Virus record (IMG/VR): IMGVR_UViG_3300017909_002275 | Span: 1-32,844 of that record | Origin: a virus | Lineage: Duplodnaviria; Caudoviricetes | Reading direction: 5' to 3' (one strand) | Length of the DNA: 32,844 bases | Shown here: one piece after another, positions 2,915 through 32,844 of the stretch | Numbering within the stretch: position 1 is the stretch's first letter | How the letters are laid out: every line of letters begins with the position of its first letter | Made by a program: the position numbers and the translations under genes | The notes under the pieces: model-generated | Database searches by the model: none | Seen by the model: only the letters and a program-made list of their open reading frames with translations | Told to the model about the DNA's origin: nothing

Positions 2915-3132
2915 CAGGCTTCCCCGTAAATTCCATCATCAGTCACCCTGATAGAGCTTATAATCTGCAAATACTCTTCAGGAGACATTTCTGCCATTTG
3001 ACCACAATAGGCTGACGCAAGCCAGGTCAGGTTCAAAAGGTCATCCCATTCGACACCTGAGTCACTCAACTCTTCAAGTAGCGTAACGATGGCTTCAAAC
3101 TCTTCGCCACCCATTTCGATGTACTCATCCAT
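2914..3132 (-). CDS. 72-aa acidic hypothetical protein
   Basis: Starts MDEYIEMGGEEFE at a TGATG overlap with the terL stop. Confidence 0.75.
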   Translation of the reverse strand: MDEYIEMGGEEFEAIVTLLEELSDSGVEWDDLLNLTWLASAYCGQMAEMSPEEYLQIISSIRVTDDGIYGEA

Positions 3133-4532
3133 CACACTACCCACTTTGCTGAACCATAATTTAGCGGCCTGTTCCATTTATGTGCGCCGCCACTCTTGGC
3201 AATACTAGCACGAGTTGCAAACGTCAGGCAAAAACTGTCTGCAAGGTCAGGGGAGTTCAACCCACGCCTTTTCATCTCATCTTTGCTTTCAACCTTCAGT
3301 TTACCATTTGACGTAAACTTGAAGCGTGGCTTTGACAGGTCGTCAATCAATTCGTCTTGTTTTGGTATTGTACACTCACGGGCTTCAAACCATTCTTTTG
3401 CGAGAAACCACAACTCATCGCGTAAGCGTCCGTATCTGTCACCCATCGCGGGGGACTCAGCGACGTTAATCCCACGCACAGGTAAATCAAGTTCCATGAG
3501 GCGGTCAACAACACCAGCACCAAGACCGATACTGTCAACAAGTATTTCGGATGGCCTATCACTCCACCTAGTCGTTTCATATTCATTCAGTATAATCCCA
3601 CATATCTCCATTAGGTCTTTGTTGCGCCATGTCTTGACTGGCTCAGTCACGACATTCCCCTTACGCTTGCACAAGGCAGTTTTATCGGTGCCAAAACGTG
3701 CAACGTCCAAGCCCCAAACAACTGTCGTTGTTTCTGCGGCTTCTTGTTCACGCTCTGAGGCAGCTTGCAAGAGGTGCAACGGAACGACTACATCGTCATC
3801 GGCTTCAGGCCATTCGCCCAAAACACGCACACGATAAATATTGCTGTCCTCCCCGTACTTCATTTTCATATCATCTATGAAATTGTCGCTGACCTGACTG
3901 CTATCAGCAGAGGCCACCTTCATGGTAAACCATCTCTCTCTCATCTTGTTGAAGGCTTCGTAGAAATATCCAGATGTACGGGTCGGGTTGCCCGTCATAA
4001 CGGTCTTGGCACCCTCTGTAGACATAGCACCTTCACCAACCTCAAAGATGATATCGTCCACACCAGATGCCTCATCAATCAGAAATAGCATGTTGGGTGA
4101 GTGAAAACCTTGCAACGCCTCTGGAGTCTCTCGGCGCGCAGTACGGGCAACGGCAAAACTGTCGTGCCCTGTAAGCTCAACTTTGTCAGACTTCACTTCT
4201 ATCAAATCTTTCAGGCCGTCTGGCATACGACGATGCCACTTTGCAACCTCTGCCCATAAAATGTCTGACAACTGACTAGCAGTGTTGGCAGTACATGCTA
4301 TCCGACTAGGGGAGCGTGTCAATACCCACCAGAGTATCAACCACGAAAGAAATGCAGTCTTGCCGATACCGTGACCAGAGCGGATGGCTACACGGTCATT
4401 ATCTCTCACGGCACATAGAGCCTTGCGCTGCCACTCCTCTGGCTTGGCTTGCAGGATGGACTCAACAAACAAAACAGGGTCAAGGGCTATTGCAAGCAAC
4501 AACTCCTCTACGTCTAATTTTTTATCACTCAT
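3132..4532 (-). CDS. terL: Terminase large subunit
   Basis: Walker A SGHGIGKT, Walker B FLIDEASG, motif III TGNP, RNase H-like GLDVARFGTD...SPDLADS; AAGGAG RBS before ATG 4532. Confidence 0.95.
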   Translation of the reverse strand: MSDKKLDVEELLLAIALDPVLFVESILQAKPEEWQRKALCAVRDNDRVAIRSGHGIGKTAFLSWLILWWVLTRSPSRIACTANTASQLSDILWAEVAKWHRRMPDGLKDLIEVKSDKVELTGHDSFAVARTARRETPEALQGFHSPNMLFLIDEASGVDDIIFEVGEGAMSTEGAKTVMTGNPTRTSGYFYEAFNKMRERWFTMKVASADSSQVSDNFIDDMKMKYGEDSNIYRVRVLGEWPEADDDVVVPLHLLQAASEREQEAAETTTVVWGLDVARFGTDKTALCKRKGNVVTEPVKTWRNKDLMEICGIILNEYETTRWSDRPSEILVDSIGLGAGVVDRLMELDLPVRGINVAESPAMGDRYGRLRDELWFLAKEWFEARECTIPKQDELIDDLSKPRFKFTSNGKLKVESKDEMKRRGLNSPDLADSFCLTFATRASIAKSGGAHKWNRPLNYGSAKWVV

Positions 4533-4629
4533 AACTTCTCCTTGTAGGGGGGACAGGAAAGGGAAATAACCCGTCCCCCCAATCGGGAGCGACAAGGAGG
4601 AGAACGCTCAACCGAAACAAACTCTCCTC

Positions 4630-4647
4630 TGTGACATTTATGACACA
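4630..4647. promoter_or_regulatory. 18-bp quasi-palindrome TGTGACA-N4-TGACACA (late-operon motif copy)
   Basis: Matches motifs at 4829, 5298 and 32567. Confidence 0.45.
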
Positions 4648-4669
4648 GGTGCGGTGTTACTGGCAAGTA

Positions 4670-4765
4670 GTCTCACACAGAGACTTAGTAGTCTCACAGT
4701 GAGTCATAAACCAGTCATTAACCTATATAAGATATATCTCTTATATTTATGGCTCACACAGAGAC
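4670..4765 (+). repeat. Non-coding inverted copy of the iteron origin (2 iterons, AT-rich tract, 1 iteron)
   Basis: GTCTCACACAGAGAC 4670, GTCTCACAGTGAGTC 4691, GGCTCACACAGAGAC 4751; colinear with the reverse complement of 8571-8667, about 75-80% identity by hand. Confidence 0.8.
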
Positions 4766-4821
4766 TCGTGAATATTTCAGGAAATTTTTTGGCTAGGGTA
4801 CCTTAGCGTTTCTCAGGACGA

Positions 4822-4903
4822 AGGGGGGTGTTGCAGATATGTCACACATAGGGAGGGGTATATATAATATATAACAGCCCCCGCCCGAAAATTTAAGGGG
4901 GGC
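4822..4903. other. Candidate packaging / genome-end region (G and C runs around a TATA tract)
   Basis: GGGGGG...GGGGTATATATAATATATAACAGCCCCCGCCC...GGGGGG between terS and terL, near a compositional change. Confidence 0.35.
4829..4846. promoter_or_regulatory. 18-bp quasi-palindrome TGTTGCA-N4-TGTCACA
   Basis: 16/19 match to 32568-32586. Confidence 0.55.
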
Positions 4904-4942
4904 TAATCGCAAACTAAAATTAGAACAATTCCAAAAGTGCGG

Positions 4943-5272
4943 CTAAGTCTCTGATTTATCTGTGTATTCTGCTTCGATTATCTCGCCGCGTTTTCGTTCT
5001 TGCAATTTGATTTGAATATGCGCCAAGGCATCGCCTAGCGTGTCACCAGCGTTGACGGTCAAATCAACGTCACGCGGCAATAGTGCCGCCATACTTCTAA
5101 TCGTGCCGTTTACGTCAGTTTCTAGCGCGTCGGCTAATAGCGTAGGCAGGGATTTGCCCCTTGCATCTAGCTCAGCTAATGCCCCTTCAAAACCGTGCCG
5201 CAATTTATGGACAACCTGTTGCCCGTGCCCCGTTCCTGCTGGCCTGCCCCTTGCCTTTTTAACCACTGCCAT
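4943..5272 (-). CDS. Putative terminase small subunit
   Basis: 109 aa, N-terminal RGRPAG motif, C-terminal IIEAEY, directly upstream of terL. Confidence 0.65.
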   Translation of the reverse strand: MAVVKKARGRPAGTGHGQQVVHKLRHGFEGALAELDARGKSLPTLLADALETDVNGTIRSMAALLPRDVDLTVNAGDTLGDALAHIQIKLQERKRGEIIEAEYTDKSET

Positions 5273-5297
5273 TTTTTAATCCTTACCCCTTTGTTAC

Positions 5298-5332
5298 CGT
5301 TGCAAAAATACCACACATAAAAAAAACGTCAA
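5298..5332 (-). promoter_or_regulatory. Putative terS promoter (TTGACG-N16-TATTTT) overlapping the shared late motif
   Basis: 5299-5317 is 18/19 identical to 32568-32586. Confidence 0.55.
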
Positions 5333-5349
5333 ACCCGTTATTTTTTCTA

Positions 5350-5378
5350 TTGACACAATGCGGGGCGCGCATTATATA
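5350..5378 (+). promoter_or_regulatory. Sigma70-type early promoter
   Basis: TTGACA-N17-TATATA with upstream A/T tracts; spacer holds the inverted repeat AATGCG...CGCATT. Confidence 0.7.
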
Positions 5379-5425
5379 TAAACAGGTAAGCCCGCAATGA
5401 CGCGGCAAATCAAAAGGGAAACGGA

Positions 5426-5671
5426 ATGAAAAATGTGAAATCATATGACGCAACGATTATCGGAATTGAGCGCATGAAAAATTCACGCAATGGCAACCCC
5501 AAGTATATGCTGACATTTCAGCATGACGGGGGCGTGATAAGCGCGGCAACGAAAACCGATAGCATGATGGCGTATAGAATTGGCAATGCGAGCGGTTTAA
5601 TCGGCCACCCCGTTTATGTGAAAATTGGCACACATTACGGCACGAATACGATTGACGCCATCGGCGGTTAG
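5426..5671 (+). CDS. Early hypothetical protein (81 aa, SRNGNPKY motif)
   Basis: First ORF after the promoter; AAAAGGG RBS-like sequence. Confidence 0.75.
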   Translation: MKNVKSYDATIIGIERMKNSRNGNPKYMLTFQHDGGVISAATKTDSMMAYRIGNASGLIGHPVYVKIGTHYGTNTIDAIGG

Positions 5672-5673
5672 GA

Positions 5674-5729
5674 ATAGCCAGCGTATAAGCCCCGTTTCGG
5701 CGGGGCTTATATACGGGTTATTTCACCCG
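5674..5729 (+). promoter_or_regulatory. Intergenic structured element, copy 1 (RNase III site-like or hairpin promoter)
   Basis: ATAGCC-AGCG-TATAAGCCCCG/CGGGGCTTATA-TACG-GGTTAT-TTCACCCG; same scaffold as 6611-6667. Confidence 0.65.
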
Positions 5730-5753
5730 AAAACAGAAAAAGGGAATTTTCAA

Positions 5754-6614
5754 ATGACTAAAACAAAAGAAGCGATGCAGGCCGTTGCAAATGAAATAAT
5801 CGACCTAATGCGTGCCCATGGCACCGATTGGGCTAAGCCTTGGACTAGCAAGGGTGTCGCATACAACCTTGTATCGGGAAAGCCATATAGGGGCATGAAT
5901 AGCTTTTATCTTGGCGCGTTAACTTGCGCCCGTGGTTATGACCACAACGCATGGGCAACCTTTAAGCAATGGTCAGACAAGGGCGCGAAAATTCGCAAGG
6001 GTGAAAAAGCAAGCGATATTTTCTTTTTTAGTATGATTGAAAAAGAAAACAAAGACACGGGCAAAAAAGAAAGTTTCGGCATGTGGCGATATTTTAAGGT
6101 TTTTAATGTCGCGCAAGTGGAAGGCTATGAAATGCCAAAACAAGAAAAGCAGGCCGATATTGTGCCCGTCGAATTTGCCGAACAATTCGTGCAAAATACT
6201 GGCGCGCAAATCCGCGAAAATGACGGTCGCGCATTTTATCACCCGACGCTGGACTATATCGGTATGCCGCAACGTGACACGTTCAAAAGCGCAACGGGTT
6301 ATTATTCAACCTTGCTTCACGAATTAACACACTGGACGGGTCACGAAACACGTTGCAAGCGTGACCTGGAAAATAGTTTCGGGTCGGAAAAATATGCGCG
6401 GGAAGAATTAGTCGCAGAATGCGGCGCGGCTTTGCTTTGCATGTCATTAGGGGTTGAGAAGCAACCGACCCCCGAACATGCAAAATATCTCAATAGCTGG
6501 ATGCAAGCCATTGCCGACGACTATAAGGCTATCTATAGCGCAATGTCGCAAGCACAAAAGGCGGTTGATTATCTGGAAGGATTGCAAACAGAGCAGGCTA
6601 TAGCGGCGGAATAA
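5754..6614 (+). CDS. ardC: ArdC-like anti-restriction protein (ssDNA-binding domain + zincin metallopeptidase)
   Basis: W.KPW, YRGMN, WATFKQW...IRKGEK, VFNVAQ, AFYHPTLDYIGMP, LLHELTHWTG, YAREELVAE, YLNSW. Confidence 0.9.
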   Translation: MTKTKEAMQAVANEIIDLMRAHGTDWAKPWTSKGVAYNLVSGKPYRGMNSFYLGALTCARGYDHNAWATFKQWSDKGAKIRKGEKASDIFFFSMIEKENKDTGKKESFGMWRYFKVFNVAQVEGYEMPKQEKQADIVPVEFAEQFVQNTGAQIRENDGRAFYHPTLDYIGMPQRDTFKSATGYYSTLLHELTHWTGHETRCKRDLENSFGSEKYAREELVAECGAALLCMSLGVEKQPTPEHAKYLNSWMQAIADDYKAIYSAMSQAQKAVDYLEGLQTEQAIAAE

Positions 6615-6667
6615 CCAGCGTTATAGGGTGCCCATGTGGTGCCCTATAATACGGGTTATTTTGCCCG
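6611..6667 (+). promoter_or_regulatory. Intergenic structured element, copy 2
   Basis: ATAACC-AGCG-TTATAGGGTGCC/GGTGCCCTATAA-TACG-GGTTAT-TTTGCCCG. Confidence 0.65.
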
Positions 6668-6687
6668 AATATGCAAAGGGGAAAGAC

Positions 6688-7416
6688 ATGTTTACACAAT
6701 TTACGCAAACAAGCCGCAATCGAAAAACGGGCGCAATATCAACCACCATGACCAGTGCAAAGTCATGCCCTAATGATTGCCCATTGAAGGGCGCGGGTTG
6801 CTATGCCGATGGCGGCGCAACCGCTATAAATTGGCGCAAAATTACGGGCGGCGAAATGGGCTTGCAATGGCAAGAATTTATTGGCGCGGTTAAAACAAAA
6901 ATAATAAAGGGCGCGTTGTGGCGGCATAACGTGGCAGGCGATTTGCAAAGCGACGGGGTGACAATTGACGCGCCAAAACTTGCCGAATTGACAAAAGCAA
7001 ACAAGGGCAAGCGCGGGTTTACATATACGCACCACAACACGCTAAACCACGCCGAAAACCGCGAAGCGGTACGGGCGGCAAACGCTGGCGGCTTTACCGT
7101 CAATTTGTCAGCTAATAACCTAGCCCATGCCGATGCATTGGCGGCGCAAGATATTGCGCCCGTTGTGTCGGTATTGCCTGCCGAATATCAGCGCGGCAAA
7201 AAAGAGGGCTTGCAAGAATACAAAGCGCGAGTTTCTCAATTGCCTAAACAAACACCTAAAGGGCGGCGCATTACTGTTTGCCCCGCCACGTTTATTGACG
7301 TTGTGAATTGCGCCAATTGTGGCCTATGTCAAAACCAAAACCGCAGGGCTATAGTCGGCTTTCCTGCTCATGGTTTTAGAACGAAAAAAGCCGACACAAT
7401 TGCGAAAGGAAATTAA
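6688..7416 (+). CDS. Cys-rich Gp88/DUF7227-like (radical-SAM-like) phage protein
   Basis: SCPNDCPLKGAGCYA, RHNVAGD, FTYTHH, NLSAN, CPA...CANCGLC...FPAHG. Confidence 0.65.
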   Translation: MFTQFTQTSRNRKTGAISTTMTSAKSCPNDCPLKGAGCYADGGATAINWRKITGGEMGLQWQEFIGAVKTKIIKGALWRHNVAGDLQSDGVTIDAPKLAELTKANKGKRGFTYTHHNTLNHAENREAVRAANAGGFTVNLSANNLAHADALAAQDIAPVVSVLPAEYQRGKKEGLQEYKARVSQLPKQTPKGRRITVCPATFIDVVNCANCGLCQNQNRRAIVGFPAHGFRTKKADTIAKGN

Positions 7417-7420
7417 AGCG

Positions 7421-7636
7421 ATGAAATGTATTCATTTTGATAAATCGCCTATGGGCTTTCATGTCTATCAAGAGGGCGAAAAACACCCCGTTGGCTGGCT
7501 CAAGCAAGCTAACGGGTACGGCTCTAATGATTATTATATAATTCACAACCGCTTGAAAGCAGACAGGCGGGGCACGGCTTTCCCATTGCGGGAAGCTAAA
7601 AAACTAATCACTAAACTAATCAAGGGGGAAGGATAA
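7421..7636 (+). CDS. Early hypothetical protein (71 aa)
   Basis: AAAGGA RBS, ATG 7421, operon position. Confidence 0.65.
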   Translation: MKCIHFDKSPMGFHVYQEGEKHPVGWLKQANGYGSNDYYIIHNRLKADRRGTAFPLREAKKLITKLIKGEG

Positions 7637-7640
7637 GACA

Positions 7641-7856
7641 ATGTTTACATTTATGATTTTTTGCATGATGGCTGGCTGGATTTTGTTGATTGCTATCTAT
7701 GGCGGGGCGCATTTATACGGGCACATAACGTCACGCCCCCAAAAAGTGACGGTGCGGTTAATCACGAATTGTGGCGGCAGAAACATAGGCCATTGGCTGT
7801 ATGATGAACACCACATAGACCAACCCGCATACCTGCGGAGACAAGAGAACACATAA
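7641..7856 (+). CDS. Small membrane protein
   Basis: N-terminal hydrophobic helix; ends IDQPAYLRR. Confidence 0.65.
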   Translation: MFTFMIFCMMAGWILLIAIYGGAHLYGHITSRPQKVTVRLITNCGGRNIGHWLYDEHHIDQPAYLRRQENT

Positions 7857-7882
7857 GCCGTTTTTCCCTTTACGGCTTATCG

Positions 7883-7913
7883 GGGGCTGGCCTGCACGGG
7901 TCAGCCCCTTTTT
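7883..7913 (+). terminator. Rho-independent terminator of the early operon
   Basis: GGGGCTGGCC/GGTCAGCCCC stem + TTTTT between convergent genes; preceded by the hairpin ATAAGCCGT/ACGGCTTAT. Confidence 0.8.
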
Positions 7914-7959
7914 ATTGCATAGCCTCTTAAAAGCCCTCAGAGGCACCTTAGAAACGTTT

Positions 7960-8511
7960 TTATAAATCCCCTAGCTCTGGTATATCGTCGCCCCTGTTTT
8001 GCTCTGTAAGGCGTTCTATGGCCTTTTGCGGTATCCTTATAAGCATTTGCCCGATATTTGCTGGCAGGGCACCGCTATCAATTTCGGCTTGTGTTTTGGT
8101 TATCGCTGCCCGTGCGCCTTCGATTGTCCAGTCCCCCCCACGGGTGCGGATATCGTCGGTCTGCTGTTCGCCCTTTGGGATATAGCTTGCAGGAGTGCGG
8201 TTGCGGACATGGTGTTCACGCGCCACCTGTTTAGAATGTTTTACGATTAAATTTAACGGGAACCAATAGCGGCTTGTGTGGTCTGATATCACGCCCCGCC
8301 AGATTTTACGCAAATATTCTGTATATAATTCGCTGTTAATATCGCTGGGCATGTTGCTGTTTATGGCTTCACAAATTTCCTGCAGGTATAGCTTTGCGCC
8401 CTCTGGGTTGTCACGCAAGCCGACATGAGCGACATACAATGTCGCCATGTTCGCCGCGAATTTTGTGCGACATAGGCTCATGCGACCTTCATAATCCATT
8501 TTATCTGTCAT
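7960..8511 (-). CDS. Hypothetical protein in the helicase-loader (lambda P) position
   Basis: 183 aa, ATGA-coupled downstream of the initiator; function from synteny only. Confidence 0.55.
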   Translation of the reverse strand: MTDKMDYEGRMSLCRTKFAANMATLYVAHVGLRDNPEGAKLYLQEICEAINSNMPSDINSELYTEYLRKIWRGVISDHTSRYWFPLNLIVKHSKQVAREHHVRNRTPASYIPKGEQQTDDIRTRGGDWTIEGARAAITKTQAEIDSGALPANIGQMLIRIPQKAIERLTEQNRGDDIPELGDL

Positions 8512-8948
8512 TTTTTCCCTTTCAGTGCCCGTTCAGCTAAGTCCAAAAACGGGTCTTGTTTTGTCTGTTTGTCTCTGTCTGAGTCATAAACATTACAAGA
8601 TATATTATTTACTGGTTCATGACTGGTTAATGGCTCACTGTGAGACACTTTAGTCTCACTGTGAGACTGTTTAGTCTCAGCCTGAGACAACAAGAGGCGA
8701 TATAGATTGCTTGTTTTCTTTCCATCCTTGCCCCTGCGAGTGACCCGAATAAAGCCGTGCTTTTCCAAATATGATATCTTGCGGTACACGGATGCCTTGC
8801 TAAGCCCCGTCACCACCATTAGCCTTGCGGCTGAAGGATAGCACGAACCGCGTTTGTCTGCGTGGCGTGCAATCGCCAGCAAAACCAGCTTGGCTTGTGG
8901 GTCTGCCACGGGTGCATCGAAGGCACTTTCGACCAGTTTGAAACTCAT
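8508..8948 (-). CDS. Replication initiator (HTH_36-type winged HTH, lambda O-like layout)
   Basis: AKLVLLAIARHAD...CYPS..RL...TGLS...V...I..LE..GFI...SNLY, then SHSET repeats encoded by iterons and HEPVN. Confidence 0.8.
   Translation of the reverse strand: MSFKLVESAFDAPVADPQAKLVLLAIARHADKRGSCYPSAARLMVVTGLSKASVYRKISYLEKHGFIRVTRRGKDGKKTSNLYRLLLSQAETKQSHSETKVSHSEPLTSHEPVNNISCNVYDSDRDKQTKQDPFLDLAERALKGKK
8571..8688 (-). repeat. Putative replication origin inside the initiator gene
   Basis: Palindromic 15-mers GTCTCA-N3-TGAGAC-like at 8632, 8653, 8674 (21-bp period), AT-rich tract, fourth copy at 8571. Confidence 0.8.
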
Positions 8949-9367
8949 ACAAGCCACTCACGAATAACGCTCAGGCCGCCAGCTAAATCTAGCGTTACGG
9001 GTATCAGCCCATTGCCCTCAACAGGCCACGAATACTGGTCACTGTCCATAGCCCAGTCTGCGTTGATTGCGTAGACGGGAAGAGTTACCCGAATCGGCTG
9101 ACGGTCATATCGCCAAATTAAACAGGGTATCATGTTCTGCTTCGCGGCGGCGGCTTTGGTCTGTTCCCACCATGCAGGTGCAAACCAGTTGCCCTGCTTG
9201 TACCTTTTAGCTTCGACTAAAATTAACTCGCCAAGCTCTATGTCACCCAACTCGCTTTCTTGGTATTGCGTGAGATTGCGGCGGCACTCAACCCCCAATT
9301 CCTCACGAAATATTTTTACCAACTCACGCTCGAAGGACGCGCCTTTCGTCCTACTCAGCTTGGACAT
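8945..9367 (-). CDS. PD-(D/E)XK Holliday junction resolvase-like nuclease
   Basis: SRTKGASFERE...GDI...VEAKRY...WWEQ...PCLIWR. Confidence 0.8.
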   Translation of the reverse strand: MSKLSRTKGASFERELVKIFREELGVECRRNLTQYQESELGDIELGELILVEAKRYKQGNWFAPAWWEQTKAAAAKQNMIPCLIWRYDRQPIRVTLPVYAINADWAMDSDQYSWPVEGNGLIPVTLDLAGGLSVIREWLV

Positions 9368-9575
9368 TTTCGGCCTGCGGCACAAAGTCGTTTGCGGTGA
9401 TGGCACCCTCAGTCGCCTGAGTTATGAGCGGTATGTGCCCCCAATCTGGGCGAGTCTCGCCAGTCATCCACCTGAACGCGCAGGACTGCGTGACGTTGCA
9501 TCGCCGCCCCAACTCATAGCTTGATATGCCTTTGAGTTCACACCACTCGCCAAGTTTCGTATTTTGATAAGACAT
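9351..9575 (-). CDS. Cro/YdaS-like HTH regulator
   Basis: ELGRRCNVTQSCAFRWMTGETRP...ITQATEGAITANDF; AAGGAG RBS. Confidence 0.8.
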   Translation of the reverse strand: MSYQNTKLGEWCELKGISSYELGRRCNVTQSCAFRWMTGETRPDWGHIPLITQATEGAITANDFVPQAENVQAE

Positions 9576-9593
9576 CTGTTTCTCCTTCTTTCA

Positions 9594-9666
9594 GATGCAC
9601 AAGCCGTATCATCCACTGCAAGCATTGTCAAGGCTGCAAAAAGATGCTAGAACTGCATCTGCAAGG
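9594..9666. promoter_or_regulatory. Divergent control region
   Basis: Minus-strand TTGACA-N17-TACGGC; AGATGC-N7-GCATCT palindrome; several CTGCA repeats. Confidence 0.45.
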
Positions 9667-9682
9667 AATCAAGGAGAACACC

Positions 9683-10072
9683 ATGACGTTAATTAAATGG
9701 CCTCTACGGGCTGGGCAGGTGAAGGACTACACCAACCTAGTCCTCAACGGTTACACGCCGACAGACATAGATTTTATCTATGACCTGAAGGGCAAGAAGT
9801 ATGTGCTAGGCGAACTCAAGGGAGTCGGGGCATCCATGCCCGAAGGTCAACGAAGGATGCTTCGCTACCTAATCCAAAACCTTGTCGCCGCAGGGTGCGA
9901 AGTGTGCCTGATGGTGGCAGAACACGACACCAACCCGTCCCAGCACATTGACGTTGGAAACTGCATCATAACGAAATGCACGACTGTTCGTGACGGAGTG
10001 ACCAGCGAGAGCATGTATATTGGCATGAGGGTGGTTGATGCGTGTAATGAATTTCTAGGTCTGGAAGACTAA
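9683..10072 (+). CDS. Small PD-(D/E)XK-fold protein
   Basis: PTDIDF...LGELK...PEGQ motif; AAGGAG RBS. Confidence 0.55.
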   Translation: MTLIKWPLRAGQVKDYTNLVLNGYTPTDIDFIYDLKGKKYVLGELKGVGASMPEGQRRMLRYLIQNLVAAGCEVCLMVAEHDTNPSQHIDVGNCIITKCTTVRDGVTSESMYIGMRVVDACNEFLGLED

Positions 10073-10133
10073 TGAAAGAAATGTATTGACTATCCAGTTC
10101 TCGTGTGCATTATGGGGACAAGGAGAAAAGGGA

Positions 10134-10991
10134 ATGAGAGAAAAACTACAGGCAAACATCGCCGCGATTGGGCTTACGCATGGCTCTCCAAGCCAGCTTG
10201 AGAAGCCTATCTGTCTGCGCCTGTTTGAGTACGTTTACCTCAAGGATGAGCGTAAGAATATCCCTACCAATGTGCCAGCCATTGCTGGTGGCTCCGCTCA
10301 CGATGCCATACAGGGCATCCTGTGTGATGGCCTTGCGCCAGAAGATGCAATACAGGTGGCGCAACAGCGCATATCAGAACACACCCCCACAGACGACAAC
10401 GACGAGATAAAGCGTGACCGATACGTTGAGGACGTTGTGGCTATGGTCGCCAATGGCACCGAAGGCTGTCTAAGCCTGACGAGTGGCTGGTTCAATGAAG
10501 CAATGACTGCTGAAGAGCAAATTACAGTAGAGCATCCAAAGCTGACCATGCCGATTATCGGCTTTGTCGATTTGACTGGTGACTTTGAGTTTATCGAAAT
10601 CAAGACCAAGTGGAACGGTCTTGGCATGGAAAGAAAAGATGGAAGCCGTGGTGTGCGGAAGGTGAAGCTGCCAGAGGTGCCCCAGCCAGAGCATGTAAGA
10701 CAGGTGGCTGTGTACAGCGTGGCGACAGGCAAGAAGGCCAATCTTGTCTATGCCAGCACAGAAGGCTATGTGACCTTCAACTCAGATAACTGTGACCTTC
10801 TATCTGATGCGTCACTCAACCACCATTTCAACCAGATTCTGCACAATGCGATTGTGTGGGAGAATCTGCTGTCCATCAGCAGTGACCCGAATGTCCTGAA
10901 GTATTGGATACAACCAAACTGGGACGACTTTCGCTGGCGGTTTATGCCAGATGATTACCTACAACAAGCGAAGGAGTTGTTTAAGATATAA
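10134..10991 (+). CDS. PD-(D/E)XK exonuclease (RecE/Cas4-like) of a two-component recombination pair
   Basis: SPSQL...GGSAH...GFVDL...EIKT...QVAVY; upstream of the SSAP. Confidence 0.8.
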   Translation: MREKLQANIAAIGLTHGSPSQLEKPICLRLFEYVYLKDERKNIPTNVPAIAGGSAHDAIQGILCDGLAPEDAIQVAQQRISEHTPTDDNDEIKRDRYVEDVVAMVANGTEGCLSLTSGWFNEAMTAEEQITVEHPKLTMPIIGFVDLTGDFEFIEIKTKWNGLGMERKDGSRGVRKVKLPEVPQPEHVRQVAVYSVATGKKANLVYASTEGYVTFNSDNCDLLSDASLNHHFNQILHNAIVWENLLSISSDPNVLKYWIQPNWDDFRWRFMPDDYLQQAKELFKI

Positions 10992-11635
10992 TGGAAAATC
11001 TAGCAAAAGAAATATGGGACAAGCTGTCAGCTATTGACTGTAGCGAACACGTTGAGAAAAAGGGCAGGTTCAGCTACCTAAGTTGGGCTTGGGCTTGGCA
11101 CATCCTCAAGAAGGAGTTTCCAGAGGCGCAGTTCGAGAAGCATTGCAATGAGAACGGCTACCCATACTTTACTGACCCAAACGGCTACGCCTTTGTAAAA
11201 GTGACAGTCAGGATTCGTGACGTTGAGGCATCTGAGATGCTTTATGTTATGGACAACAAAAATCATGCAATCAAGAACCCGACAAGCGGAGATGTTAACG
11301 CCTCTCTTCAGCGTTGCCTTGTTAAAGCAATCGCCTTTTTGGGTCTTGGACTTTACATTTACTCTGGCGAGGACTTGCCAGAAGACGCAACGAAACTTGA
11401 AAAGGGAGCCTCGACGGAGACTCCCAAGACCCCGAAGTCTAGCCCTCCCAAGCCTTCGGGGTCGCCTAATAAGACCATTGAGGAGCGTGTAAACGCTACG
11501 CCTGACCTTGCTGGTTTGAAAGCCTTGTATGAAGAGGTGAAAGAAGAAACACAGGCAATGAAGCAAGGTGAACGAGACAGAATTGTTAACTTGTTTATCA
11601 AACGTAAGGCTGAAATCGGAAAGGAAACGAAATGA
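10991..11635 (+). CDS. sak: Sak / Rad52-like single-strand annealing protein (DUF1071)
   Basis: EKKGRFSYLSWAWAW...VMDNKN...QRCLVKAIAFLGLGLYIYSGEDLP. Confidence 0.85.
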   Translation: MENLAKEIWDKLSAIDCSEHVEKKGRFSYLSWAWAWHILKKEFPEAQFEKHCNENGYPYFTDPNGYAFVKVTVRIRDVEASEMLYVMDNKNHAIKNPTSGDVNASLQRCLVKAIAFLGLGLYIYSGEDLPEDATKLEKGASTETPKTPKSSPPKPSGSPNKTIEERVNATPDLAGLKALYEEVKEETQAMKQGERDRIVNLFIKRKAEIGKETK

Positions 11636-11877
11636 GCCAGAAATACGACAACAGAGGCCAGATATCTCTCTGGTTGAATGAGAAGTACGAAGCGGGTGGA
11701 AAGTACCCCAAATACAAAGGGTCTGTCATCCTGATGGATGGCTCTTCCAGAGAGGTAGCCCTGTGGGAAAACGACAGCGATAACCCCAAGGCTCCAGCCT
11801 TGAAGGGCAAGCATGAAGAGAAGAAGGAACGCGCAGAGGCCGCTCCTGAAGCTCTTGATGACGAAATCCCGTTTTAG
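11632..11877 (+). CDS. SSB-like protein (DUF736-like)
   Basis: KYPKYKG...VALW; C-terminal DDEIPF; follows the SSAP. Confidence 0.7.
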   Translation: MSQKYDNRGQISLWLNEKYEAGGKYPKYKGSVILMDGSSREVALWENDSDNPKAPALKGKHEEKKERAEAAPEALDDEIPF

Positions 11878-12433: not shown

Positions 12434-12946
12434 ATGAAAGTAAATGTTGAGATAAAAGTAAATATGAAGGGCGATGACGGTCAGGATGTCGTCTACGATG
12501 ACGAAGATATTGTCTCTGTAGCGTCCGTCATAAGGGCTGTCGGTGAGGTCTTCATGGTGGACGAGTCCACGCTGAAAAGCAAACGCCGCCCAGCCTATGT
12601 AGCACGGGCACGGCAAGCCATGTACTACCTGTGCTGGCTCAAGACTAGAAGCAGTCTGCCCCGCATTGGTGAGATGGTTGAACGCGACCACACGACTGTA
12701 CTGTGGGGACGCAACAGGTGCATACAACTTATGCGCCAGAACGATATGTATAAAGACATGGTAATGATGGCAAAGGAGCTTGCAGAGCAATATGAAGCAG
12801 AAAAAAAGAGAGAGGCTAGAAAAGGTGCTGAGGAGATTAAACGAAAAATCGAAGAAGCACTGGAGGAAAGAAGCTCAAATGTGGAGAGACCGTGCTTTGC
12901 AAGCGGAGTGGAAGCTGTTGGAAATCTCGTCTGTCCCGAAGGATAG
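12434..12946 (+). CDS. DnaA C-terminal (domain IV) HTH-like protein
   Basis: LKSKRR...VARARQAMYYL...SLPRIGEMVERDHTTVL matches the DnaA domain IV signature; no AAA+ domain. Confidence 0.8.
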   Translation: MKVNVEIKVNMKGDDGQDVVYDDEDIVSVASVIRAVGEVFMVDESTLKSKRRPAYVARARQAMYYLCWLKTRSSLPRIGEMVERDHTTVLWGRNRCIQLMRQNDMYKDMVMMAKELAEQYEAEKKREARKGAEEIKRKIEEALEERSSNVERPCFASGVEAVGNLVCPEG

Positions 12947-16198: not shown

Positions 16199-16368
16199 CA
16201 GTCTGCATCCTGTATTGTATTGCCAGCGGCAAGATAGTCTACAATCATTTGATGATTTTCTGAACAACACCCAACACCGCCATTATCCAAAGTATACTTT
16301 ACTGCTTTAGGGTTGAGTGTCGAACCATCAAAAGCAGTGTCAATATATTGAGCCGAAACAATTGTCAT
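16198..16368 (-). CDS. Fibre-associated small protein/chaperone 3 (56 aa, absent from the ORF track)
   Basis: MTIVSAQYID...YLAAGNTIQDAD; shares I.SAQY and TIQDAD with 19037-19225. Confidence 0.75.
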   Translation of the reverse strand: MTIVSAQYIDTAFDGSTLNPKAVKYTLDNGGVGCCSENHQMIVDYLAAGNTIQDAD

Positions 16369-17459
16369 AGTTCATCCTCCAACAGAAAATAAGCATCGTC
16401 ATTTATTCCCCACCACACGGTATTGCCACCAACTATTGTTCCAGTTGTAGTTACCATAAAGCCCACCTGAGTACCTACAACAACCCAGTTTTCTATAGCA
16501 GTTACATTATTTCCGCTACTTACAAACGCATTTATAGCTACATCACCGTGTTTGGTAAAAGAACCTGTTCCTTGATAGTGAACATCTTCACCACGCATTT
16601 CGACAGGAATAGGTAAGATAAGTTGTGCAGTGTTGCTATCCCAAGCCCGTCCAAATAAAGATGGATTTGTACGATGAGATTTAATCTTTACGCAATACCT
16701 CTGACACAAAGCTAACTCTTCACCAAAGCTACGATGCTCAAATTCAGTAGCTACAGAACCAACCTCTAACTGAACGCCTGTAAGATAAATCTCATTACTT
16801 GTACTATCTAGGCAATTTACCTGACCTACTGCACGATTGGTTGCAGTATTTTGCCAAGTGTTTGATTGTAATGTGCCGCTAGAAAAGTTACTGCCAGCCG
16901 CAAACCACCACTGCATTGCAAGGCTGAAATTGTTGTCATTATCAAATGCTGTAGTTACATAACCGCTATATGTTAAAGTTACTTTCTGCCAAGTGTTTGC
17001 TGATGTAATGGTATATGCTTGAGCATTATAATATGTGGCATCATTATGCCTTAACTCAAGAATGTGCGTTCCAGTCTTAGGTGACTTTATCCAAAAACTA
17101 ATAGTTAAATCTTTTGCATCACTTGTGCCATAAAGTAAATGCTGTAAGTCTTGACCTTCGAGCCTTTGTATAAGAAGAAAATAATCATTAGCTGATATAT
17201 CAGTATCTGCGGTTGTAATATCAATCTTTAAAGAATTAGCAAATCCCTGACCAGATGGAACATCTGTAGATTGAGAACTTGTTGTTACAGCCGCACCGCC
17301 TTCGGCAGTAAGAAACCTATCACAAGCAGTGTAAGAATTTCCCGTTTGACCTGTTAGGGTTCCCCGTTGATTTACTCTCATGTCGCCATTAAAAACAAGA
17401 TTGCGCCGCCCTGACGGAGTGCTGGGTATCTGTGCTAGTTCTCTTGCGTTGCTAGTCAT
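16365..17459 (-). CDS. Tail fibre / receptor-binding protein 3
   Basis: RRNLVFNGDMRVNQRG...TGVQLEVGSVATEFEHRSFGEELALCQRY. Confidence 0.8.
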   Translation of the reverse strand: MTSNARELAQIPSTPSGRRNLVFNGDMRVNQRGTLTGQTGNSYTACDRFLTAEGGAAVTTSSQSTDVPSGQGFANSLKIDITTADTDISANDYFLLIQRLEGQDLQHLLYGTSDAKDLTISFWIKSPKTGTHILELRHNDATYYNAQAYTITSANTWQKVTLTYSGYVTTAFDNDNNFSLAMQWWFAAGSNFSSGTLQSNTWQNTATNRAVGQVNCLDSTSNEIYLTGVQLEVGSVATEFEHRSFGEELALCQRYCVKIKSHRTNPSLFGRAWDSNTAQLILPIPVEMRGEDVHYQGTGSFTKHGDVAINAFVSSGNNVTAIENWVVVGTQVGFMVTTTGTIVGGNTVWWGINDDAYFLLEDEL

Positions 17460-17638
17460 TATTCGGCCTCCGCAATCGTGAGTGTACCAGCGTCAACTTG
17501 GCGTAGGATTTCAGCATAGTGGCGATTGGCTGGGTCGAATGGAATAGACATCTCCACACCATCAATCGTTGCGGTTACAGAAACATTGCCAGTCTCATCT
17601 GCATTATATTGCGCTGATGTAATATTCATTTCTTCCAT
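17459..17638 (-). CDS. Fibre-associated small protein/chaperone 2
   Basis: DPANRHYAEILRQVDAGTLTI, near identical to 19037-19225. Confidence 0.8.
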   Translation of the reverse strand: MEEMNITSAQYNADETGNVSVTATIDGVEMSIPFDPANRHYAEILRQVDAGTLTIAEAE

Positions 17639-17639
17639 C

Positions 17640-19037
17640 TTACAACTCCGCATCTAAAAATAAGGTTGCGGTGGTGTCGTTATCTGTCCTTACACTTGTA
17701 CCAAACCCCTGACTTTCAGCAATAGATGATACTGCTTGAAAAGCTCCTCCTGAAGGGTATGCTCTAGTAAGAACAATACTACTCAAATTTGCGCCACTTG
17801 GACCAAAACATTCAAAATTACCGCTTGTAGTCATACTAGGAGTTGCTCTCATAACTGGAGAAAATACAAGTTGCACTCTTATCGAAGTAGTGGTGCCAAA
17901 CGTCCCACTTCCAATGTTTCGGTATGCTGACCTGTCTCCAGCCGTGTAGTCTTGGAAGTATCTCCGACATAACTCTAACTCCTCACCAAAGCTGCGATGC
18001 TCAAATTCGGTGGCTACAGAGCCAACTTCAAGTTGAACGCCTGTAATAAAAAATTCATTCGCTGTGTTGTCTGCCAGATTGACTGTTTGACCAACGCATC
18101 GGTTTGCATCTACCAGAGTCGCCCAAGTTGAAGGGATTGTACCTGAGTTATAGTTCGACCCTGCTCCCAACCATACAAGAACCTCAAGGCTTCTGGCGTT
18201 GTCATTGTCTAACGCTGATGCAGTATCACCAACAAAGGTCAGTGTTTTCTTTTCCCAAGTGTCGGCAGAATCAATCGTATATGTTTTGGCAATGTGCTTG
18301 CCCGTGTCTGAGCTGTATAACTCAATGACATAAGTTCCAGTTTTATTAGAACGGACATGAAATGAAAGTGTCACTGATTTTGCGCCAGAAGTTCCATATT
18401 GAAGATGCTGTAAGTTTTGCCCCTCCATTGGAGATACAGACAAAAATACTGCAACATCACTTGCAAGAGATGTATCGGCTGTTGTGCAATCTAATTTATA
18501 AGAATGAGAAAACCCGTCAGGAGTAGTAGTTGACTGGCTAATTGTGTATTCGTGTGTGCCAGCACTATTGAGAGAAACATATTTTACCCTGTCTGGCGCA
18601 TTAGCATATTTAATAACAGCCCCAACACCTGTTTCCGATGTTCCACGCTGTGACACCTGCATGCCACCATTGACAATCAAGTTGCGCCGACCACCAATCT
18701 GACCGCCGTTAATTGAGGGGGTTGTCAGGTCGCCACCAACAGTGACATCTTGGCTAAAGTCACCAGAGAAAACAGAGAAGGTATCAAACGCAAGGATTTC
18801 CAGCGTATCGCCTACTGTGGCACCGCTATCAAGAACAATGCTAGTGCTAGAGGTGGCAGTGTAGTCAGACTTGTCCAGCTTTACGCCGTTGAGAAATACA
18901 TCGGTAAACTCCGCATCGGTGTAGCTCAACGTGCGGTTATGGTCGTCAGTACCACTAAATGTAGTTTGACCAGCAGTCGCTGTGTAGATAAAGCGATTGC
19001 GAATACCTGTTCCAGGAGATTTGCCGATATATGCCAT
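17640..19037 (-). CDS. Tail fibre / receptor-binding protein 2
   Basis: MAYIGKSP, TATAGQTTF...VFLNGVKL domain, then the same RRNL...QRG / VQLEVG core. Confidence 0.8.
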   Translation of the reverse strand: MAYIGKSPGTGIRNRFIYTATAGQTTFSGTDDHNRTLSYTDAEFTDVFLNGVKLDKSDYTATSSTSIVLDSGATVGDTLEILAFDTFSVFSGDFSQDVTVGGDLTTPSINGGQIGGRRNLIVNGGMQVSQRGTSETGVGAVIKYANAPDRVKYVSLNSAGTHEYTISQSTTTPDGFSHSYKLDCTTADTSLASDVAVFLSVSPMEGQNLQHLQYGTSGAKSVTLSFHVRSNKTGTYVIELYSSDTGKHIAKTYTIDSADTWEKKTLTFVGDTASALDNDNARSLEVLVWLGAGSNYNSGTIPSTWATLVDANRCVGQTVNLADNTANEFFITGVQLEVGSVATEFEHRSFGEELELCRRYFQDYTAGDRSAYRNIGSGTFGTTTSIRVQLVFSPVMRATPSMTTSGNFECFGPSGANLSSIVLTRAYPSGGAFQAVSSIAESQGFGTSVRTDNDTTATLFLDAEL

Positions 19038-19225
19038 TAGTCTGCGTCCTGTATCGTAAGTGTGCCAGCATCCACCTGCCGTAGGATTTCGGCGTAGTGG
19101 CGATTGGCTGGGTCGAGTGGGACATACATTTCAACACCATCAATGGTAGCCTTGACAGATATGTTTCCCCCATCGCCCAAAGTGTCTGCAAAATATTGTG
19201 CCGATGTAATTGTCATGCTATCCAT
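19037..19225 (-). CDS. Fibre-associated small protein/chaperone 1
   Basis: VPLDPANRHYAEIL motif, directly after a fibre gene. Confidence 0.8.
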   Translation of the reverse strand: MDSMTITSAQYFADTLGDGGNISVKATIDGVEMYVPLDPANRHYAEILRQVDAGTLTIQDAD

Positions 19226-19227
19226 TT

Positions 19228-20292
19228 TTACATCTCCGCATCTGCTTCTGCGCTTTGAAAGTTTTGAGCATTGTTATCAATATAAACCTGCACCATATCC
19301 TTTGTGTGATATGTAGCGATAACGGCGTCACTTGCTGTTCCTGTTACAGTTGGAACTGCCCTCATTGTTACTGGACAGGCAAGCCTAGCAAATGAGTTAG
19401 TTCCATAGTCTGCGGTATACAAGGTCCTTTCAGTATCAAGTTTATGAAAATACCTCTTACACAGCGCTAAGTCTTCAGCAAAACTAAGATGTTCAAATTC
19501 TGTGGCTACTGTGCCAACTTCCATTTGAACTCCCGTTATAAAAAATGTTCTGCTTGTGCTATCAACAATGCTACCACAGCCAACCGCCCTATCAGGATTA
19601 GAAATAGCACCCCAAGATGTTTGTAAGGAAGAACCGCCAGAAAAATCGCTTCCAGCGTGCATCCATATCAAAAGCCTCAAACCAGAGTTAGCGTTATCAG
19701 CAATTGTTCCAGTGGTATCGGCTGGATATGTTAACTCTACTCGTGTCCAATCTGTCGTAACATTAAAAGATTTTGATACTGTTCTCGAATTAGTTTCATC
19801 TAGCAGTTCAGCAATAAAAGTTATGTTTGAGCTACTTTTTACATAAAAAGAAACAGTAAGCTCTTTCGCATCGCTTGTTCCTTTTGCTAATCTTTGAACA
19901 TCTTGACCTTCTATTTTTTGCTCGAAAACAAAAAATTCAGTTGCCCCAATAGATGTATCGGCAATAGTGCAAGCAAACTTAACAGACTTAGTAAGTCCTG
20001 TTACAGATGGAGCATCTGACTCTTGAGTCATTGTTAATCGTCCAGCATTAACACTGGAGCTTGCCACGTTTACTTTAAATCTATCTACAGTAAAAAATCC
20101 ATCAGCAGTTCCAATCCCTGTTTCTGATGTCCCACGCTGTGCCACCCTCATAGCACCATTGATAATCAGATTGCGCCGCCCACCAATCTGACCGCCGTTT
20201 ATTGAGGGAGTAACAATATTATCTTCAATAGTCAGTGTTTGTGCTGTAGTAGCATCAATAACATCAATCGGCTTTTTGCCAGTATAAGCCAT
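19228..20292 (-). CDS. Tail fibre / receptor-binding protein 1
   Basis: MAYTGKKP; paralogous core. Confidence 0.8.
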   Translation of the reverse strand: MAYTGKKPIDVIDATTAQTLTIEDNIVTPSINGGQIGGRRNLIINGAMRVAQRGTSETGIGTADGFFTVDRFKVNVASSSVNAGRLTMTQESDAPSVTGLTKSVKFACTIADTSIGATEFFVFEQKIEGQDVQRLAKGTSDAKELTVSFYVKSSSNITFIAELLDETNSRTVSKSFNVTTDWTRVELTYPADTTGTIADNANSGLRLLIWMHAGSDFSGGSSLQTSWGAISNPDRAVGCGSIVDSTSRTFFITGVQMEVGTVATEFEHLSFAEDLALCKRYFHKLDTERTLYTADYGTNSFARLACPVTMRAVPTVTGTASDAVIATYHTKDMVQVYIDNNAQNFQSAEADAEM

Positions 20293-32566: not shown

Positions 32567-32603
32567 TGTTGCAAAAATATCACACAATGCTTTTTACGCA
32601 AGA
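32567..32603 (-). promoter_or_regulatory. Putative head-operon promoter (TTGCGT-N16-TATTTT) with the shared late motif
   Basis: GTTGCAAAAATATCACACA, 18/19 identical to 5299-5317. Confidence 0.6.
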
Positions 32604-32607
32604 TATT

Positions 32608-32844
32608 TTATACACGAGGTAGATTTGTTGATGTTTCTATGCCAGAGCGCACCTTTTCTGTACGAAGCTGCATTTCAAACTCAAGCTCTTGGCGACGAAG
32701 CTCAAGTTCAGCAGCCATCTTCTCGCGTTTAAGCTGGAACTCCATCTCCATTTTCTGTTGCTCCATCTGCAACTCAGCTTGCATTTTTTGCATTTCAGCA
32801 GCCAAAGCAGGGTCTTGCTGCGGCCCAGCCTGTTGAGCAGCCTG
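32608..32844 (-). CDS. Portal protein, 3' end
   Basis: Gln/Glu-rich barrel-type tail, in frame with 1-1929 through the terminal repeat. Confidence 0.85.
   Translation of the reverse strand, partial: QAAQQAGPQQDPALAAEMQKMQAELQMEQQKMEMEFQLKREKMAAELELRRQELEFEMQLRTEKVRSGIETSTNLPRV
32704..32844. repeat. Terminal 141-bp exact repeat (copy 2)
   Basis: Identical to 1-141. Confidence 0.95.

Follow-up and report, generated by a model that had tools for sequence, protein, structure and literature searches.

The window, a stretch of 32,844 nucleotides that makes up the IMG/VR virus record IMGVR_UViG_3300017909_002275 (Duplodnaviria; Caudoviricetes), contains a second, non-coding copy of its replication origin in the gap between terS and terL, where the copy points into a predicted short direct terminal repeat (DTR). 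Comparison with related genomes establishes the copy itself, its co-variation with the replication initiator, its fixed polarity toward a terminus element, and the position of the DTR in one relative and in Sinorhizobium phage phiM5 (MF074189). The explanation favored here, which is judged to have slightly less than an even chance of being correct, is that this second origin (the cassette) is a terminus-directed origin that would duplicate the DTR at concatemer junctions. On that reading, the cassette likely lets the host replication machinery copy the short terminal repeat that is needed at both ends of the virion DNA. A literature search found nothing describing this combination of features.

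Replication genes and the primary origin

The primary origin (positions 8571 to 8688, minus strand) lies inside the initiator gene and consists of iterons at 8674, 8653 and 8632, an AT-rich segment, and a distal iteron at 8571. The gene (8508 to 8948, minus strand) encodes a short (146 aa) lambda O-like initiator with a winged helix-turn-helix (HTH), which matches Pfam HTH_36 (4e-14) and the PHROGs for replication initiation protein (4e-20) and O-like protein (5e-18). Behind it is a conserved gene (7960 to 8511, minus strand) that might, on a weak basis, encode a lambda P-like helicase loader. The product of this gene has no Pfam or PHROG match, its top PDB matches in Foldseek are weak ones to lambda P (9oa1; E 0.097-0.17), and its nearest named ESM Atlas clusters are G39P_N and Phage_lambda_P at 0.89-0.90. 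Pfam and PHROG scans identified a RusA-like resolvase (8945-9406), a Cas4-like exonuclease (10086-10991), Sak (10991-11635) and SSB (11632-11877), and the region from 8945 to 11877 is a junction-processing and recombination kit. No DNA polymerase, primase, helicase or RNA polymerase was found among the 53 ORFs scanned, so duplication of the DTR must rely on host enzymes.

A second origin between terS and terL

The cassette (4670 to 4765, plus strand) consists of iterons at 4670-4684 and 4691-4705, an AT-rich segment at 4706-4750 and a distal iteron at 4751-4765, with its AT-rich side oriented toward the terminus element. A preliminary description of the window had reported an inverted copy of the origin in this gap with an identity of about 77/97, and had called for alignment of the 4600-4800 region with the reverse complement of the initiator origin. 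That alignment, made with gaps, confirms that 4669-4765 is an inverted copy of 8571-8668 with 80% identity over 98 columns. The iteron spacings were also as described, being 21 and 60 in the cassette (starts at 4670, 4691 and 4751) and 21, 21 and 61 in the primary origin, as was the absence of initiator coding sequence around the cassette, since the likeness ends at the outer iterons. The segment pair 4669-4739/8598-8668 is the longest among the 189 inverted pairs of the window (71 nt, 80%), and the local score of cassette versus origin is 99, compared with a maximum of 28 among 600 shuffled slot-versus-origin comparisons.

Misassembly, which had been named as a possible source of the duplication, is ruled out by bridging unitigs and independent contigs. 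Logan unitigs from X1 and X2, which may be the source samples, traverse both origin copies, unitigs from X5, X6 and X9 span 4670-4765, and both copies are also present in the independent contigs L001, L005 and L106. GC skew, a further check that had been proposed, gave no clear origin signal in the window and tracks the coding strand.

The terminus element and the predicted terminal repeat

The large terminase subunit gene (3132 to 4532, minus strand; likely start 4532) matches PHROG_2 (1.6e-47) and is preceded by a putative late promoter with a TGTG...ACA box (4630 to 4665, minus strand). A sigma-70 scan gave matches near the shuffle level (13 vs 7.6) and missed likely early and late promoters. 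The terS-like gene (4943 to 5272, minus strand) matches neither a Pfam terS family nor a PHROG, and was named from its position and from phage C72C1, in which the corresponding gene is annotated as terS. Two divergent alleles of this gene occur in close relatives, with 31-35% identity between near-identical backbones, and the terS alignment is without conserved stretches.

A C-tract/G-tract/TATA element (4865 to 4902, minus strand) is found in 43 of 49 distinct terL-upstream regions and, as judged from the sequences, marks the genome end in phiM5 and in a cassette-bearing relative. The right end of phiM5 and the end of contig 3300046167_000430 fall 12-13 nt past the G-tract, the annotated DTR of phiM5 (357 bp) ends at the C/G-tract element, and the cassette-bearing relative (L032/L102) has an imperfect 298-bp DTR that ends 12-13 nt past the G-tract. 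Based on these two DTRs and on the L014/L003 contig, which opens at terS codon 18, the physical end of the window is predicted at about 4865 and its DTR at 4865 to 5230, with an outer boundary inside terS at about 5090 to 5230. The cassette is about 100 nt genome-inward of this predicted end. A weak depth step occurs at 4865-4895 (about 2x in X9 and X12, 1.3-1.4x in X5, absent in X6), and a unitig break near 4865-4895 coincides with a SNP at 4895. In a contig-end motif scan of 15 of 64 parts, among 115 loci, 2 stop 21-22 nt beyond the G-tract and 2 begin at the C-tract, which is too weak to count. The genome ends of tf, phiGT1, RHph_N3_2 and ppBeUSDA76-2 included no comparable mapped end, and scanning for the MCP turned up no additional complete linear genome. 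The C-tract/G-tract element after terS provides a sequence rule by which genome ends can be located in a large group of uncultured marine podophages.

The segment from 4880 to 8520 is an early, restriction-site-depleted region and the predicted first-entering end, and includes an ArdC anti-restriction gene, DUF7227 and hairpin-separated early genes. The composition of this enclosed DNA (about 3.6 kb) is distinct and resembles that of first-entering regions. A single-stranded segment was rejected as the cause of the compositional shift because the depletion is strand-symmetric and maps to restriction-type motifs.

Co-variation of the cassette with the initiator

Between genomes in which the 5' DNA of terL is 97-99% identical and the promoter/leader 99-100% identical, the slot occupied by the cassette is only 47-60% identical, and each of the swapped slots resembles the origin of its own initiator. 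The own origin gave the best score in 9 of 12 class representatives and none of 200,000 permutations reached the observed trace, which bears out the co-variation with each phage's own iterons that the preliminary description had proposed as a check. At least seven independent iteron classes are each tracked by the cassette, and between the window and L005, whose initiators are 81% identical, lineage-specific changes in the AT-rich segment are common to both copies. Initiator allele and distant cis site are thereby exchanged together. Cassettes keep the full origin build of iterons, an AT-rich patch 120-200 nt past the G-tract and a distal iteron; the patch is absent in L046, L035 and L067. The initiator operon is inverted in L026, L033/L278, L012 and L013, so that the two origins are direct there (4 of 20 pairs, the other 16 being convergent), and the polarity of the cassette toward the element is unchanged. 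L012/L013 have a gene of about 450 nt between the cassette and the terL promoter, and there the cassette remains against the terminus element.

Relatives without the HTH initiator (L046, L072; L035/L103) are also without the cassette, which speaks for a terminus-directed origin. The cassette is not universal, however, and this counts against such an origin. C72C1 has the initiator iterons and the terminus element and lacks the second copy, L067 has the initiator and one degenerate iteron at most, and in L073/L076/L079/L081 the element is within about 120 nt of terL, which leaves no room for a cassette. Relatives that lack the copy, anticipated earlier as grounds for doubt, thus exist, but seven or more classes are tracked. 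Also counting against this reading are two mismatched genomes and the L012/L013 pair, which match in broad class only (own origin ranked 11 and 5). L018, which is 96% identical to L146 over 10 kb, combines an L017-class cassette with an L014-class initiator, and L139, with a partial slot, has the reverse combination; chimeric assembly, cross-binding or dispensability could account for them. The earlier proposals of selection on the DNA sites and of initiator recruitment near the packaging locus are retained with the genome end as the link, and such recruitment is likely since the copy is maintained and tracks its own initiator.

Possible roles of the cassette

Terminal repeats must be duplicated at packaging (PMC5000459, PMC4281155). 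Models of how short DTRs are regenerated chiefly concern T7, a phage with polymerases of its own, and phages that use the host replisome must do this by other means. As a terminus-directed origin, the cassette at 4670-4765 would be bound by the O-like initiator, which together with the putative P-like loader would place host DnaB there. A fork from the cassette would then cross the single repeat at the concatemer junction, and its passage would yield two repeat-bearing arms. By cutting one arm at the boundary within terS, terminase would begin the packaging of one genome, and by cutting the other arm at the C/G-tract element it would finish the neighboring genome; the short stubs left over would fall to the RusA-like nuclease. 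Initiator binding, firing and its timing, the DTR of the window itself and the order of the cuts are elements that we infer. Somewhat more tentatively, polymerase-less phages may duplicate their repeats through a dedicated iteron terminus origin that is re-matched when the initiator is swapped and sends a host fork across each junction during packaging, as an iteron counterpart of the polymerase-driven end processing of T7. The element of about 100 bp is a concrete, testable candidate with fixed polarity and a fixed distance to the end, and the natural swaps in specificity are ready cognate and non-cognate controls.

Alternatively, initiator bound to the cassette could stall the fork from the primary origin, as at SPP1 oriR, with the RusA-like nuclease, exonuclease and Sak restarting it as a rolling circle and a break arising beside the packaging site. 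Such a fork-block model is published for SPP1 (in the portions cited of PMC6316719 and PMC3485210), the window encodes the resolvase, exonuclease, Sak and SSB, and its primary origin aims at the cassette across the DTR. A block requires iterons, however, and not a co-varying AT-rich melting segment, and because the direction of the primary origin flips in four relatives while that of the cassette is constant, forks would reach a polar block from opposite sides, which makes this role unlikely. The full origin build and the co-variation would also suit a second origin of general purpose that fires late and from which rolling-circle synthesis of concatemers begins at the junction, with no specific part in repeat duplication, and the cassette, being non-coding, could fire while the initiator operon is silent. 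This is improbable given that it leaves unexplained the constant spacing of about 100 nt to the element, which is kept even with a gene inserted on the terL side. It is rather improbable that the bound initiator instead recruits or orients terminase, tying packaging to phage-specific DNA without DNA synthesis. The cassette does adjoin the end mapped by homology and the terS alleles swap freely, so another protein may add specificity, but the melting segment is retained and relatives with the same element package without a cassette.

The preliminary description had suggested that the copy couples late transcription to replication, and the first iteron is indeed 4 nt from the putative -35 hexamer of the terL promoter in the window and about 10 nt from it in the L014 class. 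Regulation of this promoter by the initiator is very doubtful, since the L012/L013 cassette is separated from the promoter by one gene and about 450 nt, and the AT-rich segment and distal iteron would be unneeded. The suggestions of a 3.8-kb long terminal repeat flanked by the two origins, or of the two serving as convergent unidirectional origins, draw on the predominantly convergent geometry and on the first-entering character of the enclosed DNA. Contig and unitig depths within the 3.8-kb segment are not doubled, however, at 12.4 in X2 (13.6-17.2 outside) and 14.5-15 in X1 (15.6-16.5 outside). A long terminal repeat and obligatory convergence were rejected on these depths, the 298-bp DTR of the relative and the direct pairs, and there is very little chance that either applies. 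The mismatched pairs and the cassette-free relatives would be expected of a neutral relic or an assembly artefact, a reading that is largely refuted by the tracking of the iteron classes and by the bridging unitigs and contigs, and that is now scarcely credible.

Comparison with known phage systems

In phiM5, terL is 47% identical to that of the window, and the DTR starts in a terS-like ORF and extends to 13 nt beyond the same C-tract/G-tract element, a short way upstream of terL. The phiM5 terL, however, starts 35 nt after its DTR, an iteron cassette is missing, and a putative helicase is annotated. Phages with long terminal repeats of the T5/SPO1 type differ in having about 2x depth over a multi-kb early region, which is absent here as judged from contig depths. 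Lambda has a single origin and cos ends, its iterons and AT-rich segment lie inside the O gene, P follows, and the host replisome is used. The window resembles lambda in having iterons and an AT-rich segment within the gene for an O-like HTH initiator, followed possibly by a P-like gene, and differs in its second origin, its DTR and an initiator of only 146 aa. In T7, the phiOR promoter/origin is located just inside the first-packaged end and points at the repeat. The window likewise appears to have, slightly inward of the end that is packaged first, a site for its own replication initiator that is aimed at the repeat, and a short DTR that needs duplication (PMC4281155, PMC5000459), placed here by homology together with a weak depth step. 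T7 relies on a phage-encoded RNA polymerase, DNA polymerase and primase-helicase, whereas none was found here among the 53 ORFs, so that their task would fall to an iteron origin and host DnaB.

The precedent for two origins is SPP1, in which G38P acts with oriL and oriR (PMC6316719, PMC3485210). In the portions of those accounts considered here, SPP1 shares with the window two origins of similar build (repeats and an AT-rich unwinding element), of which one lies within the initiator gene and the other is non-coding in the late region, together with an encoded resolvase, exonuclease, annealase and SSB. Co-variation serves as a proxy for an initiator that may bind both origins, as in SPP1. In the same accounts, a distance of 12-13 kb separates the SPP1 origins, there is no mention of oriR lying next to an end, headfuls are packaged from pac, and the phage has its own DnaB. 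Here, by contrast, no helicase was found among the scanned ORFs, short DTRs occur at a fixed site, the same element, in the relative and in phiM5 and serve to predict the ends of the window, and the second copy, about 100 nt from the predicted DTR end and pointing into the DTR, is swapped with the initiator across the population. The system is likely to be a variant of the two-origin kind known from SPP1, with the second origin beside the predicted DTR end of a marine phage.

Genome organization

The assembly of the window is circular and represents a 32.7-kb phage, which was detected in sequencing runs from seawater and estuary. The exact end overlap of 141 nt (1-141 and 32704-32844) lies within the portal gene and was rejected as a direct terminal repeat (DTR), being an assembly overlap. 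Besides the portal protein, the genome encodes an SU10-type capsid, TerL (3132-4532, minus strand) and the product of a terS-like gene (4943-5272, minus strand), which lacks a family match and is named from its position. An early block includes ArdC and DUF7227, and the replication and recombination genes encode a lambda O-like initiator of 146 aa (8508-8948), a RusA-like nuclease, an exonuclease, Sak and SSB. A scan of 53 ORFs of the window detected no polymerase, primase, helicase or integrase. The product of 12434-12946 resembles the helix-turn-helix (HTH) of DnaA domain IV (PF08299, 3e-16) and is kept in relatives. Three tandem tail-fibre paralogues (16365-20292; phrog_4492) share DNA repeats of 70-84%, and a short ORF lies ahead of each. 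GATC and CCGG sites are absent from the entire window and present in the related contigs L012, L013 and L067, which suggests different hosts.

A second copy of the origin that co-varies with the initiator

The preliminary description placed an inverted copy of the primary origin in the gap between terS and terL, and alignment bears this out. The cassette (4670-4765; iterons at 4670, 4691 and 4751) and the primary origin within the initiator gene (iterons at 8674, 8653, 8632 and 8571) match at 80% over 98 columns, the longest inverted pair within the window, with a score of 99 versus a maximum of 28 in 600 shuffles. Both copies are bridged by unitigs of several runs as well as by independent contigs, so the arrangement is not a misassembly.

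Relatives were collected with three scan queries (terL, the initiator and the gene lying behind it), and covariation was assessed in 20 contigs or contig pairs having both the initiator and the region upstream of terL (the slot). The iteron cassette in the slot differs from lineage to lineage. In L017/L059, L014/L128 and L060, the 5' DNA of terL is 96-99% identical and the promoter/leader DNA 99-100% identical, whereas the cassettes share only 47-60% identity and each resembles the origin of its own initiator. The phage's own origin scored highest in 9 of 12 class representatives, and the observed trace was reached by none of 200,000 permutations. Window and L005, whose initiators are 81% identical, differ in the same way in the AT-rich segments of both copies, which points to selection on the segment or repeated copying from the primary origin.

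The expected covariation thus holds in the main, but with exceptions. L018 pairs a cassette of the L017 class with an initiator of the L014 class, its backbone being 96% identical to that of L146; the reverse mismatch occurs in L139, which lies outside the 20 and has a partial slot. L012 and L013 match to broad class only, and L067 shows one degenerate iteron at most. An earlier set of 20 included the distant L093 and L091, both without a match, where the present one has L033/L278 and L013. Absence from relatives, proposed as an argument against the second copy, applies to some lineages while others carry their own cassette: phage C72C1 has initiator iterons and no second copy, and L046, L072 and L035/L103 have neither HTH initiator nor cassette. 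The lineage of L046, L072, L103, L149 and L150 retains a P-like gene with no HTH initiator ahead of it.

Genome ends and the early segment

All cassette-bearing genomes inspected have a C-tract/G-tract/TATA element (4865-4902 in the window) ahead of the cassette, whose AT-rich side is turned towards it. Of 49 distinct regions upstream of terL, 43 contain the element. Phage phiM5, whose TerL is 47% identical, has an annotated 357-bp DTR (ends as in its GenBank record) that opens in a terS-like ORF and closes 13 nt beyond this same element. The linear contig IMGVR_UViG_3300046167_000430 (terL 87%) carries its own cassette and a 298-bp terminal repeat that begins within terS and stops 12 nt past the G-tract; 3 substitutions and 2 indels distinguish its two copies, as separate reading of the ends would predict. 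Contig 3300046169_000054, which has no overlap, begins at terS codon 18. Judged from these sequences, the element marks a genome end, and the window's ends are predicted at about 4865 and between about 5090 and 5230. Contig depth steps up to the right of 4865-4895 in runs X9 (29.4 to 60.1) and X12 (43.1 to 86-93), less in X5 and not in X6, with the break on a SNP; this is a weak hint of a DTR.

Two terS-like alleles, 29-35% identical (4943-5272 versus 9233-9589 of L005, also L017 and L060), alternate in near-identical backbones (terL 99%) beside an unchanged terminus element. Upstream of terL in L041, L043 and L067, the two C-tracts of this region are set apart by an insert of ~230-370 nt. A TGTG-N-CATA...ACA box, likely a late-regulator site, precedes terL (4630-4647), terS (5299-5317) and the scaffold gene (32568-32586), lies within the terminus region (4829-4846), and also occurs in relatives.

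Composition shifts on both strands at ~4800-8500, where GANTC (0 versus 58 outside), GCWGC (1 versus 66), GGNCC (0 versus 18) and GAAGA (1 versus 14 expected) are depleted, for a motif panel partly picked after the data were seen. The trend recurs in most of 17 loci tested; L012, L013, L067, L046 and C72C1 show it weakly or not at all. Long intergenic hairpins at 5665-5730 (z -6.3) and 6605-6670 (z -5.7) share outer stem and internal loop, differ in their cores, and resemble sites at which RNase III would process an early operon. Because of the site depletion, ArdC and the hairpin-separated small genes, the segment reads as the first-entering early end. That the origins bracket it would thus reflect the place of one of them beside the other end of the linear chromosome, rather than a repetition of the segment.

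Role of the cassette

Each concatemer junction contains a single repeat, and packaging requires that this repeat be duplicated (PMC5000459, PMC4281155). On the linear DNA of the virion, the cassette sits ~100 nt inside the predicted terL-side DTR and is aimed at it. We tentatively prefer, at a little short of an even chance, that it is an origin directed at the terminus that duplicates the DTR at concatemer junctions. The initiator would bind the cassette and load host DnaB, with the weakly lambda P-like 7960-8511 protein as partner, and the fork would cross the repeat. Terminase could then start packaging by a cut within terS on one arm, and finish the neighbouring genome by a cut at the C/G element on the other; nearness of the cassette would keep the leftover stub short. 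Since cassette-free relatives exist, the repeat can form without the cassette, which may be accessory. Somewhat more guardedly, polymerase-less phages might duplicate a terminal repeat through a dedicated, initiator-matched terminus origin firing a host fork.

The main rival, though unlikely, is a fork block like SPP1 oriR that triggers rolling-circle restart, a model published for SPP1 (PMC6316719, PMC3485210); it has no need of a co-varying melting segment and fits poorly with a primary origin that flips. The initiator operon is inverted in 4 of 20 pairs (L026, L033/L278, L012 and L013; the last two also have a gene of ~450 nt between cassette and terL promoter). The two origins are direct there, so the facing arrangement proposed earlier is not invariant. 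Contig depth within 5-8.5 kb is not doubled, which argues against the suggested 3.8-kb long terminal repeat with ~2x coverage. The long repeat and the convergent pair are together very improbable. A general late second origin is doubtful, a packaging licence more so, and initiator control of the late terL promoter improbable; a neutral cassette is the least probable of all.

Comparison with known systems

Two initiator-bound origins have been published for SPP1 (PMC6316719, PMC3485210), so the two-origin layout as such is not new. SPP1 differs in having its own helicase and in headful packaging, which the window phage, from its predicted ends, would not use. T7 differs in encoding its own polymerases; its point of comparison with the cassette is phiOR. 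The combination of fixed polarity into a short DTR with allele-matched swapping of the cassette is not described in the literature searched, mostly non-subscription, and appears to be new.
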